From NCBI GenBank assembly GCA_035307565.1, contig DATGHZ010000031.1, forward strand, positions 29,061-93,060: a DNA stretch of 64,000 nucleotides. Reading direction: 5' to 3'. Position 1 is the stretch's first letter; the number at the start of each line of letters is the position of its first letter. Shown here piece by piece: positions 60,071 through 64,000 of this stretch. The translations under genes and the position numbers were made by a program. Source of the stretch: a bacterium (GTDB lineage Bacteria; Sysuimicrobiota; Sysuimicrobiia; Sysuimicrobiales; Segetimicrobiaceae). Under the pieces are notes generated by a model, which was not told where the DNA came from, made no database searches, and saw nothing but the letters and a program-made list of their open reading frames with translations.

Positions 60071-60637
60071 CTACCGCGTAATGCGCGTAATCTTGGCTCC
60101 CTGTAGCGAGACGTCGAACATCAGGCCCTTCTGGCCCACCACGAAAGCCACAACGGGCTGGTTGATCTGCATCGTGCTGAGATCGGCGCCGACCCCCACG
60201 TTCACCAGCGTGACGGCGCCGTTGACGCCGACCTGCCAGCCCGACGCCTGCTCGAAGCTCCTGAGCGCCGCCCTGTCCCGGAACACAAGAAGAAGGTCCT
60301 TCGACTGGATGCCGAACGACGCGCCCCAAGATCCGCCCGCGATGCTATAGTAGCCGTGCGGCTGACCGCCCTCCCTCAGGGCTCCCTCGCCGTACTGTCC
60401 CCCGATGACGAATGCGACCTTGACGACACCCGGGAACACGAGCACGCCTTTCGACGACGCAAGGAACTTGGCGCCGCCCTTGACGGTCTCGTCGAAACGC
60501 GCGATCGCGGCATCGACACCGGCGTTGATTTCGGCGGCCGTCTTGGCCTGTGAGACGCTCGGCGCAGCCAAGCTGCCGAGCCACAACACGCAGATTGCGA
60601 CGACCGCTACGGTCCTGCGGGCACGCATGTGCATCAT
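60071..60637 (-). CDS. Secreted Ysc84/SYLF (DUF500) lipid-binding domain protein
   Basis: Track ORF, 188 aa; signal peptide; ...SWGASFGIQSKDLLLVF... is typical of the SYLF domain. Confidence 0.65.
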   Translation of the reverse strand: MMHMRARRTVAVVAICVLWLGSLAAPSVSQAKTAAEINAGVDAAIARFDETVKGGAKFLASSKGVLVFPGVVKVAFVIGGQYGEGALREGGQPHGYYSIAGGSWGASFGIQSKDLLLVFRDRAALRSFEQASGWQVGVNGAVTLVNVGVGADLSTMQINQPVVAFVVGQKGLMFDVSLQGAKITRITR

Positions 60638-60895
60638 TTCGAGGTCACCTCAGGGTCAATCGGATGGTGAAGGGGATAATTCGACCTAATTGAGAGTGTC
60701 ATGGGAACCCTAATTGTCCGTGCCGTTCGATTTACGCTCGATTTTCCCCTGCTGCTTGGTATGAAGACAAGGGTTCCTTCGCGATAATGACCGACGGAAT
60801 CAATCTCGTGGAGGGGCAAAAATCCAGGCTAACGGCGCCGCAAACGTCGGTTGCTTATCTGGAAATTGCTAGGGCGAAATTGAATCCTCCAACGT

Positions 60896-63800
60896 CTATT
60901 GGCGCCGTTTCTCTAAGTTGGCGAAGCGGCTGTATTCTTTGTGAAAGTACAGTTCTACGGTGCCAATGGGTCCGTTGCGATGCTTGGCGATGATGAGCTC
61001 GCAGATATTTTCTTTGTTCTCTTTCTGAGCTCTTTCCTGATCGTAGTAGTCTTCACGGTAAAGAAAGACAACAAGGTCGGATACTTGCTCAATCTCGCCC
61101 GAATTATGCGCGGCTAAACCGTGGGCGATGAAGTTGTGAGTTGCCGGCATCACAAGATCGTACACGAGAGAAATGCCCCTCGGTGCGATGCTCACGACTC
61201 GATCCCACAGTATGTCGCTGGTTGCCATCTCTTTAACATCTGGTGCACCAAGACGCTCGGCGAGTGCAAGAGCGGTAGAACGATCGAGTGTCTTGCCGGT
61301 TTGCAGCCGGAAGCCAAGTTGCCGCCAACTAACGCCGGCTTCTTTCTTGAGCGCCCAGAGCCTCGCTGTCACCGCGTAGGGTAGTCTATCGACCCAGGGC
61401 TTGATGCGAGGATGATACGCGAGTTCGGCTCGACATCTCGCTATCAACTCGTCTTTCCTGCCTTCAATTCCGACCTGTTCACAAAAGGCGTAGAGATGTC
61501 GGACATCTTCAATGGTGACCCGGTAAAGGGGTACAGTCGCCACCTTACTCTTGTAACCGGCGCTTATCTGCGACACGATGTCAAACCGCAACAGTAGATC
61601 TCGTACGTCTTCTGCGAGTCCGAGAGAGCTGGTGTCGTAATGCAGGGACCAAAGTGTGCCGCCCGTTCGCGTGTATCGCCGGCGTGTGAGGCAGCCGTCA
61701 GTGGAGTACAGTGCCCTGAGGAGATTGCGAAGACCGTTGCGGTCGGCTTCACAGAAGACCCGTTGGGGAACGCGCTTGGTATTGTATCTTTGTCCTTCAA
61801 TACCAATCTCTCGCAGCCAATTTCGCAGGCCGTTTCCGCCACGTCTTCCGGAAAGTTGACCGTTTCCGTTCGGTTTGGGATACAGTGAAACCAACTTCAC
61901 GTATGGAACACCACGAATCCGGCCCCGTCGTCCAATTACGTTGAACTCGCGTTGGGCTATAGAAATGCAGTCCTCAAATGTGTGGGCGTCCTTGCTAATG
62001 AACGTTAAGGTCCTTCTGCACTGATAACTTCCGTCGCCAATCATGTAACCAATCAAGCGTAGACGCTCGGGCGTGAGACTCGGCGGCTTCGGCGAGAACA
62101 CCGGCAAAGACCGCGCCGCCGCCACTAGCGATCCCTCGTTGAGCTGGCCAAGAGGCTTCCAGCCCTCAGGTGTGAGGATAGGATGATTTGCGGTCGCGGA
62201 CAGCCGGCGCCCGGTGCTCGTTCGGATCTCGAACACTTCATTCTCGCCCTTTTCGAACACGGCGGCCGGCCGCACCGGGACGAGCCGTCCCCTTTTGTCC
62301 AAAGACAGCAGTCTGGGCCATTCGCTGAGTGCTGCCAACTCCGCTATGGTGTGACGCCGTCCACTGTCCGCATCCCACACCACCGTGTCGCCGGTAACGC
62401 ATTCTCTCAGGTGACTGAGCATCGGCCGCTTTTGCCCTAAGGCTTCCACCGCGCGGCTCAACTGCGAGACCGCGATGATCGGAACGTCGAGCTCCTTGGC
62501 CAGCGACTTGATCCCGCGGGCGATCTCGCTGAGTTCCTGCGTCCGGTTCTCGGAGCGCTTGTACGACTGAATCATCTGAATGTAGTCGACCACGATCAGG
62601 CCGAGGCCGTGCTCGGCTTTCAACTTGCGCGCCTTGGCGCGCATCTCGATGATTGACAGTGTGGCGGAGTCGTCGATAAAGATGGGGGCCTCGCTGAGAC
62701 CGCCCATGGCGCGCGCCAGTTTCCGCCAGTCTTCGTCGGCGAGGAAGCCGGTCCGGAGTTTGCTGTTGTCGACCTGCGCCTCCGAACAGAGAATGCGCTG
62801 GACGAGCTGCTCCTTGCTGGTTTCGAGGCTGAAGATCGCCACCGGGATCTTGTTGGCCAGCGCCGCGTGCTGCGCGATATTGAGGGACAGCGTCGTGTTG
62901 TGGACGCACACGTCGTTCGCGACGAAGTTGTGCGTCACCGGAATCGTGAGGTCGTACACGTGTTTGAGCCCGAGCGGCTCGATCGAGACGATCTCGTCCC
63001 AGCAGACGTCGTGGTCCACATCGGGGGCCGCCGGAAGTTCCGCGGCAAGCGTCGCCGTCCCGGCCGGCGGGCGCCGGCGTGCGAGCGCGCGGGTTCCGGC
63101 CGAAGCCGCGTGCCGGGTCGGATACGCGCTCGACACCTTGGCGCGCCCGGGTGCCCCGGCAACGACCGGTTCCGCCGCCGTTTCCGTGGTGAACGTCACG
63201 ATCTCCGATGCGAACGTCCGGAGCGACGCGGGGTCCGTGATCTCAACCTGCCAGCCGCCGCTCCAAGCGTAGCCGCGCGGATCTCTCGACCGGCCGAGCG
63301 ACGCCACAATGCCGAACCGCAGGAGCAGGTGCTGGACCTGGTGGGCCGGGCGTTCCCGCGCCACCGCGTACCCGGCGTAGACGAGGACGCCCGCGGCGTC
63401 GGTGCTGGCAGCTCCCGTGGCGGCGAAAAGCCGAGTGAGCAGCAACGCAAGCTGCGAACGGCGCAACGTGAACGCCGCCACGGGGATCTCATCACGCACA
63501 GACTCCGCGCCGACGACTGACTTCGCGAGCCGGTTGAGCTCGCAGTCGGACATCGCTGCGGCGCCGAACACGGGCAGCCGGCGCGGGACGGCGACGCGGT
63601 CTCCGGCGCGCAGCGCGGCCAGCGGAAGCCACCCCTCGCGCGTGAGAAACGGGTGGCACCCGGTGGTCTCGACACTCCGGCCGAGCCGCGTCGTCACGCG
63701 GAACACCGGCTTGTGTCCGTCATCGACAAACGCGGACGGCGCGGTGAACCCAAGGCGCCGGCCGGCGTCGAGCGTCATAAGGCGCGCCCGCCGCCGGCGG

Positions 63801-64000
63801 TAGACCTCCTCGATCGTCGCGACGCTCCCGTCGTCGAGCAGGATCTCGCTGTCCGCGCTCACGCACTTGCCGACCGACGGCCGGGCCGCCACAACCACCA
63901 TGTCGGCGGCCTGGAGTCCCGAAGTCAGCATGTCGAAGTCGGAGAAGCCGGTGGCCACGCCGGTGATTGTCCCCTTTTCCTGGTAGCGGCGGTCGATCTT
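60896..64000 (-). CDS. dnaB: Replicative DNA helicase DnaB interrupted by two inteins (5' end beyond window end)
   Basis: Track ORF 60896..63958 is in frame to the window edge (...KIDRRYQEKGTITGVATGFSDFDMLTSGLQAADMVVVAARPSVGK). Spliced exteins read GK|TTLSLNIAQHAALANK...LIVVDYIQMIQ...RPMLSHLRE|SGEIEQVSDLVVFLYREDYYDQ..., classical DnaB Walker A, H4 and C-terminus. Confidence 0.93.
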   Translation of the reverse strand, partial: KIDRRYQEKGTITGVATGFSDFDMLTSGLQAADMVVVAARPSVGKCVSADSEILLDDGSVATIEEVYRRRRARLMTLDAGRRLGFTAPSAFVDDGHKPVFRVTTRLGRSVETTGCHPFLTREGWLPLAALRAGDRVAVPRRLPVFGAAAMSDCELNRLAKSVVGAESVRDEIPVAAFTLRRSQLALLLTRLFAATGAASTDAAGVLVYAGYAVARERPAHQVQHLLLRFGIVASLGRSRDPRGYAWSGGWQVEITDPASLRTFASEIVTFTTETAAEPVVAGAPGRAKVSSAYPTRHAASAGTRALARRRPPAGTATLAAELPAAPDVDHDVCWDEIVSIEPLGLKHVYDLTIPVTHNFVANDVCVHNTTLSLNIAQHAALANKIPVAIFSLETSKEQLVQRILCSEAQVDNSKLRTGFLADEDWRKLARAMGGLSEAPIFIDDSATLSIIEMRAKARKLKAEHGLGLIVVDYIQMIQSYKRSENRTQELSEIARGIKSLAKELDVPIIAVSQLSRAVEALGQKRPMLSHLRECVTGDTVVWDADSGRRHTIAELAALSEWPRLLSLDKRGRLVPVRPAAVFEKGENEVFEIRTSTGRRLSATANHPILTPEGWKPLGQLNEGSLVAAARSLPVFSPKPPSLTPERLRLIGYMIGDGSYQCRRTLTFISKDAHTFEDCISIAQREFNVIGRRGRIRGVPYVKLVSLYPKPNGNGQLSGRRGGNGLRNWLREIGIEGQRYNTKRVPQRVFCEADRNGLRNLLRALYSTDGCLTRRRYTRTGGTLWSLHYDTSSLGLAEDVRDLLLRFDIVSQISAGYKSKVATVPLYRVTIEDVRHLYAFCEQVGIEGRKDELIARCRAELAYHPRIKPWVDRLPYAVTARLWALKKEAGVSWRQLGFRLQTGKTLDRSTALALAERLGAPDVKEMATSDILWDRVVSIAPRGISLVYDLVMPATHNFIAHGLAAHNSGEIEQVSDLVVFLYREDYYDQERAQKENKENICELIIAKHRNGPIGTVELYFHKEYSRFANLEKRRQ
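61103..62401 (-). mobile_element. Intein 2 (433 aa) at the second DnaB site (dnaB-b), with a LAGLIDADG homing-endonuclease domain
   Basis: Begins CVTGDTVVWDAD after ...LSHLRE and ends ...NFIAHGLAAHN before SGEIEQ (S = +1). Two LAGLIDADG motifs: LIGYMIGDGSY and LRALYSTDGCL. Noticeably lower GC than the host. Confidence 0.88.
62897..63865 (-). mobile_element. Intein 1 (323 aa) in the DnaB P-loop (GK^T; dnaB-a site)
   Basis: Begins CVSADSEILLDDG right after ARPSVGK and ends ...FVANDVCVHN before TTLSL (T = +1 nucleophile). Contains degenerate dodecapeptide-like LLLTRLFAATGAAS. GC is host-like. Confidence 0.85.

Follow-up and report, generated by a model that had tools for sequence, protein, structure and literature searches.

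The replicative DNA helicase gene dnaB at the end of a 64,000-nucleotide stretch of genome from an uncultured soil lineage (contig DATGHZ010000031.1 of GenBank assembly GCA_035307565.1; hereafter the window) is interrupted by two inteins. The subject of this report is the second of them (intein 2), an insert of 433 amino acids encoded by positions 61103 to 62401 of the minus strand within motif H4 of the helicase. Very probably it is a canonical class-1 intein, with a HINT fold and a nested two-motif LAGLIDADG homing endonuclease, for which a mobile element is the best explanation as a whole. We also lean, by a modest preference, toward a recent homing of intein 2 from a donor of lower GC content, during which the flanking extein was co-converted.

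The minus-strand translation of 61103 to 62401 ran over 433 codons with zero stops, from CVTGDTVVWD to HGLAAHN. A plus-strand reading of the same positions was rejected because its translation was full of stops, which assigns the feature to the minus strand. A preliminary description of this DNA, which gave no strand, had placed a 433-residue insertion between LSHLRE and SGEIEQ, and its coordinates, flanks and motifs match this translation. In the open reading frame (ORF), the text around the insert is ...QKRPMLSHLRE/CVTGD...AAHN/SGEIEQVSDLVVFLYRED... (slashes mark the splice junctions). All hallmarks of class 1 were seen, namely, Cys1 (CVTGD), a block B of the TxxH form, block F, the terminus ...GLAAH432-N433, and Ser at +1; the Cys1, terminal HN, +1 Ser, and pair of LAGLIDADG motifs that the preliminary description had listed are thus all present, and both motifs have their acidic residues.

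Profile and structure searches agreed on the splicing domain. Pfam Intein_splicing matched intein 2 alone (E value, 6.9e-15; 55.6 bits against a cut-off of 35.8), TIGR01445 (intein_Nterm) matched its N-terminal splicing region (E value, 1.7e-11), and the NCBIfam model of intein-containing DnaB, PRK07773, spanned insert residues 1 to 433 with profile positions 398 to 826 (E value, 2.2e-68). Matches of this strength lie far outside what chance would give. The best solved relative in a sequence search of the PDB was the Synechocystis DnaB mini-intein (1MI8; E value, 6e-19), with both splicing halves aligned: residues 4 to 102 of 1MI8 with the N-terminal splicing region of intein 2 and residues 109 to 155 with the C-terminal one. 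Further matches were the Npu DnaB intein and the Mtu RecA intein (E values for the Synechocystis and Npu DnaB entries, 6e-19 to 2e-14), and the splicing blocks all aligned with these solved DnaB and RecA inteins. An AlphaFold2 model of intein 2, built on a 20-sequence alignment, reached a predicted local distance difference test score (pLDDT) of 90.2 and a predicted template-modeling score of 0.90. Its top match in Foldseek was TliVMA (7QSS; E value, 3.6e-25; template-modeling [TM] score, 0.69), followed by the full-size, endonuclease-carrying inteins PI-PfuI, PhoVMA, PI-TkoII, and PI-SceI and then by mini-inteins at a root mean square deviation (rmsd) of 1.0 to 1.5 Å; the splicing domain superposed on the Ssp DnaB, Npu DnaB, and Mtu RecA inteins at an rmsd of 1.1 to 1.5 Å. 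Judged by its residues, intein 2 is presumably competent to splice.

The endonuclease region carries the motifs LIGYMIGDGSY (residues 116 to 126) and LRALYSTDGCL (residues 228 to 238), in which Asp123 and Asp235 are spaced 112 residues apart. Predicted helices 111 to 123 and 221 to 235 of the AlphaFold2 model terminate in the two motifs. Among 20 homologues, I121, G122, and D123 of motif 1 and T234 and D235 of motif 2 were at least 90% conserved, and the glycines that close the motifs, G124 and G236, were invariant. Pfam LAGLIDADG_3 matched intein 2 (E value, 1.9e-15; 57.3 bits against a cut-off of 22.5), and the Foldseek matches of the model that bear on the endonuclease region were PI-PfuI and, ranked behind the mini-inteins, the free-standing LAGLIDADG enzymes I-Tsp061I, I-OnuI, and I-AniI, each at probability 1.00, together with TliVMA and PI-SceI. 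The LAGLIDADG fold on which the preliminary description depended is therefore predicted, both in the model (pLDDT as above) and in its matches to endonuclease-carrying inteins and to I-OnuI, I-AniI, and I-Tsp061I. Between the window and one relative (L004), the nonsynonymous substitution rate (dN) of the endonuclease region was 0.20 and the synonymous rate (dS) was saturated, for a dN/dS of ~0.06, compared with ~0.14 in the N-terminal splicing region; both are rough values (NG86 method, computable pairs only). They indicate that purifying selection constrains this region at the protein level; the endonuclease looks intact and may be active.

The closest relatives of intein 2 were 62 to 72% identical, and all lay within DnaB of metagenomes or metagenome-assembled genomes, labeled Armatimonadetes or “Bacillati bacterium ANGP1.” A scan of genome contigs recovered two loci only (L001 and L002; 63 to 67% identity), both with inteins at the same two sites, and the 7 relatives with both junctions readable all had the same architecture. 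Among the matches listed for a metagenome scan with the extein peptide IIAKHRNG, the DnaBs were 50 to 66% identical, and only L011 was close. A search with the spliced extein found the uninterrupted sequence LSHLRESGEIEQ in P0049 to P0053 (extein identity, 87 to 97%), which answers in the affirmative the question of an empty allele raised in the preliminary description; intein 2 is an in-frame insertion without counterpart in these orthologues, as an intein is expected to be. The closest empty allele, P0049 (97% extein identity), kept intein 1, as did P0050, P0051, and P0052, and P0053 had neither intein. At the nucleotide locus L007, the empty junction was CCGATGCTGAGCCACCTTCGCGAA/TCGGGCGAAATTGAGCAGGTC. 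Intein 2 with an empty P-loop was found in P0007, in P0010, and in the mini-intein carriers, and across the relatives, 4/4 combinations of presence and absence of the two inteins occurred.

At least 13 mini or partial inteins belonged to the intein 2 lineage (61 to 74% identity in the splicing domain), and their deletion boundaries differed (for example, 114 to 253, 115 to 333, 145 to 360, 98 to 337, 128 to 365, and 112 to 372). By these differing deletions, the endonuclease was lost repeatedly and independently. A second, distant lineage (CVTGDTLV.LA...), whose splicing domain was 37 to 46% identical to that of intein 2, occupied the identical RE/SG boundary. A mobile intein would be expected to leave just such a scattered mixture of empty, full, and decayed alleles, and the polymorphism of empty, full, and mini states among close relatives bears out the earlier view of intein 2 as full-size and potentially mobile.

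The base composition of dnaB changed abruptly near intein 2. A maximum-likelihood single change point in the GC content of third codon positions (GC3) fell after codon 518 (window position 62446), ~15 codons upstream of intein 2, with a GC3 of 0.880 before it and 0.607 after it (values for each segment are in Table 1). The tract from 60896 to 62446 (GC content, 0.556) had the lowest GC content of any 1.5 kb in the window; 1.5-kb stretches elsewhere had a mean of 0.683 (standard deviation, 0.026; minimum, 0.606), and the gene downstream of dnaB was back at a host-like GC3. In every relative examined, the GC3 of intein 2 was below that of the host extein (0.57 to 0.82 versus 0.79 to 0.92). The Arg codon at −2 (window positions 62405 to 62407) was AGA or AGG in 6/7 occupied alleles, the window included, and CGN in 4/4 empty ones (window versus L001 to L008, L089, and L090; one-sided Fisher P of ~0.015, computed by hand on a small sample with phylogeny ignored), and this codon may mark flanking DNA that moves along with the intein. 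Because low GC3 spans intein 2, the C-extein, and ~15 upstream codons, a recent import with co-conversion is suggested.

Several results temper this picture. In the donor search, the nearest intein was only 72% identical, no relative’s C-extein DNA was closer than 86%, and the phage and plasmid collections, searched for a vector or donor, gave nothing above 36% identity. The GC3 of the C-extein was also somewhat low in several relatives, empty alleles among them (0.69 to 0.90 in occupied relatives and 0.73 to 0.85 in four empty alleles; the window, at 0.588, was the lowest of 12), so that the drop belongs in part to this segment of the gene itself. Synonymous sites were saturated for most pairs, which limits what the dN/dS values say of selection on the endonuclease. 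Synonymous-codon identity to L003 and L005 was slightly lower in the C-extein (0.52 to 0.58) than in the middle extein (0.63 to 0.67), which alone is no proof of a different origin.

The insert might instead be a real intein that is now a fixed, vertically inherited resident with a dead endonuclease, the low-GC tract being due not to homing but to ordinary homologous recombination or gene conversion of the 3′ half of dnaB with a lower-GC relative or to local codon usage. We consider such a history rather unlikely. It would explain why the relatives and the phage and plasmid collections held no donor, why the copies of the intein lie so far apart (dS exceeds 1 even for the nearest relative), and why C-extein GC3 is somewhat low in some relatives, empty alleles included; yet the GC3 break lies within ~15 codons of the intein 2 junction, and intein 1, fully ameliorated, shows in the same gene the look of a long-term resident. 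The endonuclease is already gone in many relatives, as a fixed resident would allow. On the other hand, purifying selection has preserved the endonuclease region of intein 2 over its full length, with the two catalytic Asp residues, and empty, full, and mini alleles occur intermixed among exteins of 87 to 97% identity.

Intein 2 might instead be kept as a conditional-splicing switch of DnaB that responds to redox state, metals, or DNA and is not merely selfish, as proposed for mycobacterial DnaB inteins; we give this little credence. Splicing of Mycobacterium smegmatis DnaBi1 responds to oxidation and zinc (PMC6195587, PMC7360933), and the window has the arrangement of M. smegmatis: the helicase is essential, intein 2 lies in its DNA-binding H4 loop, and intein 1 lies in its P-loop. 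DnaBi2, at the H4 site, is however the intein that was unresponsive to stressors (PMC6195587). Mini derivatives persist after loss of the endonuclease, as a useful switch might; very close relatives with empty alleles, on the other hand, imply that the host can do without intein 2, and nothing in its sequence hints specifically at a sensor. A still more improbable explanation is an artifact, either a chimeric metagenome assembly in which dnaB alleles from two different strains were joined or a pseudogenized, nonfunctional insert. The composition of the tract differs sharply from both flanks, and strain chimeras do occur among metagenome-assembled genomes, from which the relatives derive. Two chimeric junctions, into and out of the tract, would however be needed, the frame stays open over 1,034 codons with perfect splice junctions, the 7 relatives with readable junctions share the architecture, and in every relative examined the GC3 of intein 2 is likewise below that of the host gene.

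The published scheme for DnaB has three intein sites, of which site b is the ATP-binding P-loop (PMC4760082; PMC6195587). The preliminary description had called the intein 2 site dnaB-b, a label that we rejected: site b is the P-loop, which is filled by intein 1, and intein 2 lies 165 residues downstream, although the flanks given for it, LSHLRE and SGEIEQ, were right. Site a holds M. smegmatis DnaBi2 and the Mycobacterium tuberculosis intein, and a G-1V mutant of DnaBi2 places Gly at −1 (PMC6195587). For the Ssp DnaB intein, the PDB title of the G-1F mutant (6FRG) likewise shows Gly at −1. Site-a inteins recovered here read RESG/C...HN/S (P0027, P0030, P0041, and Nocardia farcinica DnaB), and the Rhodothermus DnaB intein is presumably another at site a. 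The window reads RE/C...HN/SG, with Glu at −1 and SG after intein 2. Because the empty alleles read RESGEIEQ, the insertion point is unambiguously Glu/Ser, two residues upstream of site a (RESG/S); site a, as in the Ssp and Mtu inteins, was rejected for intein 2, since those have Gly at −1 and here it is Glu.

A site c lies in motif H4, two residues from site a (PMC4760082). RE/SG is the sole neighboring position with a +1 nucleophile and is exactly two residues from RESG/S, and intein 2 most likely occupies this published site c; the name follows from the statement in PMC4760082 that the sites are two residues apart, not from a residue-level figure. A literature search on DnaB-c gave nothing useful. 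Correcting the label matters for the choice of comparators: the Synechocystis DnaB intein, put forward in the preliminary description, is homologous to intein 2 but occupies the neighboring site a, two residues farther downstream.

A helical segment of intein 2, KPWVDRLPY...VSWRQLGFRLQTGKTLDR...LAERLG (residues ~335 to 393, at about 61223 to 61399), separates the LAGLIDADG core from block F and is kept in site-a and site-c DnaB inteins. It looks like a helix-turn-helix DNA-binding add-on. Several of the mini relatives still hold a helical segment of ~50 to 60 residues directly before block F.

The occupant of the P-loop, intein 1, is real, as the preliminary description implied in calling the present insert the second in dnaB. 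It reads GK/CVSADSEILL...VCVHN/TT within Walker A, and it matched Pfam Intein_splicing (E value, 7.9e-19) and, over a single stretch, LAGLIDADG_3 (E value, 2e-8). Its Cys1, TGCH block B, and +1 Thr are class-1-like, which sets it apart from the P-loop mini-inteins of mycobacteria, which are of class 3, and from its residues the site is dnaB-b of the published scheme. The two inteins were 40% identical over the N-terminal splicing region (E value, 9e-16) and 29% identical over the second endonuclease half plus the C-terminal splicing region (E value, 2e-15). Intein 1 is without the first LAGLIDADG half, and its motif 2 is LFAATG, with Thr where intein 2 has Asp235 (LYSTDG). With its host-like GC3, it looks like an old, ameliorated, and immobile resident with a degenerate endonuclease remnant.

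Splicing of intein 2 would begin with a thioester between Cys1 and Glu-1, followed by attack of the +1 Ser (trans-esterification). Cyclization of Asn433, helped by His432, and an O-to-N shift would then leave LSHLRE-SGEIEQ and restore motif H4, and intein 1 would have to splice too, restoring the GK/T of Walker A, before an active helicase could form. The endonuclease, whose two LAGLIDADG helices end in Asp123 and Asp235, would cut an intein-less dnaB across the RE/SG codons, and double-strand-break repair would copy intein 2 in and drag flanking extein along. With six base pairs between sites a and c, insertion at one should destroy the target of the other, which would make their inteins competing occupants of one locus. 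The window intein lineage was 42 to 48% identical to site-a inteins in the splicing domain, about the same similarity as to the other site-c lineage, and these pairwise identities are compatible with a two-codon target shift between the a site and the c site. We offer only tentatively the full scenario, in which an intein driven by its endonuclease recently invaded dnaB of an uncultured soil lineage, its co-conversion tract is still visible, and the inteins of sites a and c, split by a two-codon target shift, now compete. If it is true, the bacteria of this clade would offer a natural setting in which to follow the entire intein homing cycle and the competition between neighboring sites.

DnaB is the commonest bacterial intein host, and both H4-motif endonuclease inteins and double-intein DnaBs have been described before (PMC4760082, PMC6195587). 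Intein 2 shares with the site-a DnaB inteins of Mycobacteriales (M. tuberculosis and M. smegmatis DnaBi2) its class, Cys1, +1 Ser, nested LAGLIDADG endonuclease, and location in motif H4; the N. farcinica DnaB intein was 31% identical to it end to end (E value, 5e-53), with both LAGLIDADG motifs aligned. The Mycobacteriales inteins differ in being inserted at RESG/S with Gly at −1, where the window has RE/SG with Glu at −1, in an identity of only ~30%, and in their actinobacterial hosts, as opposed to the uncultured soil lineage of the window. The HINT domains of the DnaB inteins of Synechocystis sp. PCC 6803 (1MI8; M86 variants 6FRG and 6FRH) and Npu (4O1R) superpose on that of intein 2 at 1.2 to 1.5 Å, whereas the Ssp DnaB intein is at site a and the Synechocystis and Npu structures are of mini-inteins, natural or engineered, that lack an endonuclease. 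TliVMA (7QSS), PI-PfuI (1DQ3), PI-TkoII (2CW7), and PI-SceI (1VDE) have a LAGLIDADG domain inserted into the HINT domain at the same point (Foldseek E values, 3.6e-25 to 1e-12; TM scores, 0.5 to 0.7), but they are only 12 to 18% identical to intein 2, are archaeal and yeast inteins, and occupy other sites in other host proteins.

Two inteins are indeed present in one helicase gene, but to call this notable, as in the preliminary description, was an overstatement, since double-intein DnaBs are known in M. smegmatis, other Actinobacteria, and Cyanobacteria. As in M. smegmatis (DnaBi1 in the P-loop and DnaBi2 in H4), the H4 intein of the window bears the endonuclease and the P-loop intein is without a functional one. 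DnaBi1, however, is a class-3 mini-intein (Ala1, WCT triplet), whereas the P-loop intein of the window is class-1-like (Cys1, TxxH, +1 Thr) with a LAGLIDADG remnant, and the known double-intein DnaBs of Actinobacteria and Cyanobacteria combine sites b and a (PMC4760082), whereas the window combines the P-loop with the RE/SG site. The basic finding thus adds a member and not a concept, and what it offers beyond that is a view of the population: in a single clade of uncultured soil bacteria, one codon boundary is found in four states (empty, full-size with an intact-looking endonuclease, independently decayed mini, and occupied by another lineage), and the copy in the window still has its tract of foreign composition reaching into the flanking extein. 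This would be a textbook homing cycle within a clade, from which rates of invasion, decay, and co-conversion under natural conditions could be measured, and if the endonuclease is active, its target is a highly conserved helicase sequence.

Table 1. Features of the dnaB locus and intein-bearing relatives (window positions unless a relative is named; GC3, GC content at third codon positions)
Feature	Positions	Strand	GC3	Remarks
dnaB (replicative DNA helicase), C-terminal 1,034 codons plus stop	60896–64000	−		One ORF; Pfam DnaB_C and NCBIfam DnaB models
N-extein (partial)	63866–64000	−	0.889	Ends in Walker A, ...ARPSVGK
Intein 1, 323 amino acids	62897–63865	−	0.873	P-loop site, GK/C...HN/TT; Pfam Intein_splicing and single LAGLIDADG_3 stretch
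Middle extein, 165 amino acids	62402–62896	−	0.867	TTLSLNIA...MLSHLRE; DnaB RecA-like core to motif H4
Intein 2, 433 amino acids	61103–62401	−	0.610	Class 1 with LAGLIDADG homing endonuclease; RE/SG in motif H4
Intein 2, N-terminal splicing region	62087–62401	−		Residues 1–105; Cys1 codon, 62399–62401; block B T70-A-N-H73, 62183–62194
Intein 2, endonuclease region	61247–62086	−		Residues 106–385; two-motif LAGLIDADG core, then helical segment ~314–385; AlphaFold2 secondary structure alpha-beta
LAGLIDADG motif 1, LIGYMIGDG	62030–62056	−		Residues 116–124; catalytic-position Asp123
LAGLIDADG motif 2, LRALYSTDG	61694–61720	−		Residues 228–236; catalytic-position Asp235
Intein 2, C-terminal splicing region	61103–61246	−		Residues 386–433; block F, VYDLVMPATHNFIA; block G ends His432-Asn433 (61103–61108)
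C-extein, 68 amino acids	60899–61102	−	0.588	Starts with +1 Ser (61100–61102); stop codon, 60896–60898
Compositionally foreign tract	60896–62446	−	~0.61	GC content, 0.556; last ~15 middle-extein codons, intein 2, and C-extein; candidate homing/co-conversion tract
Downstream gene, Ysc84-like	60071–60637		0.847	
Mini/partial intein relatives	P0013–P0029; L003 6001–7914; L005 1582–3573; L006 3001–4935			
Second-lineage carriers	P0069, P0032, P0034, P0037, P0046, P0048			P0069 extein 91% identical to window

The dnaB ORF runs on the minus strand from 60896 to past 64000, with the N-terminal part of the gene beyond the end of the window, and Pfam DnaB_C (E value, 3.7e-91) is broken into three stretches across it. 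In two relatives (L003 and L006), the gene order is rpsF-ssb-rpsR-DUF2232-rplI and then dnaB, and because these genes precede it there, the gene is, on this gene order, the chromosomal replicative helicase. Downstream of dnaB, the 258-bp intergenic region 60638 to 60895 has a GC content of 50% within a window of 68%; it could be part of the imported tract or plain AT-rich intergenic DNA.

An unannotated dnaB of chromosomal type, with a site-a intein (RESG/CLPAST...SVHN/SLEQD), was found in N. farcinica NZ_LN868939.1 (L091, 301 to 2958). This 2.66-Mb sequence is filed as “plasmid 2” with 2 annotated features and looks like a mislabeled piece of chromosome.

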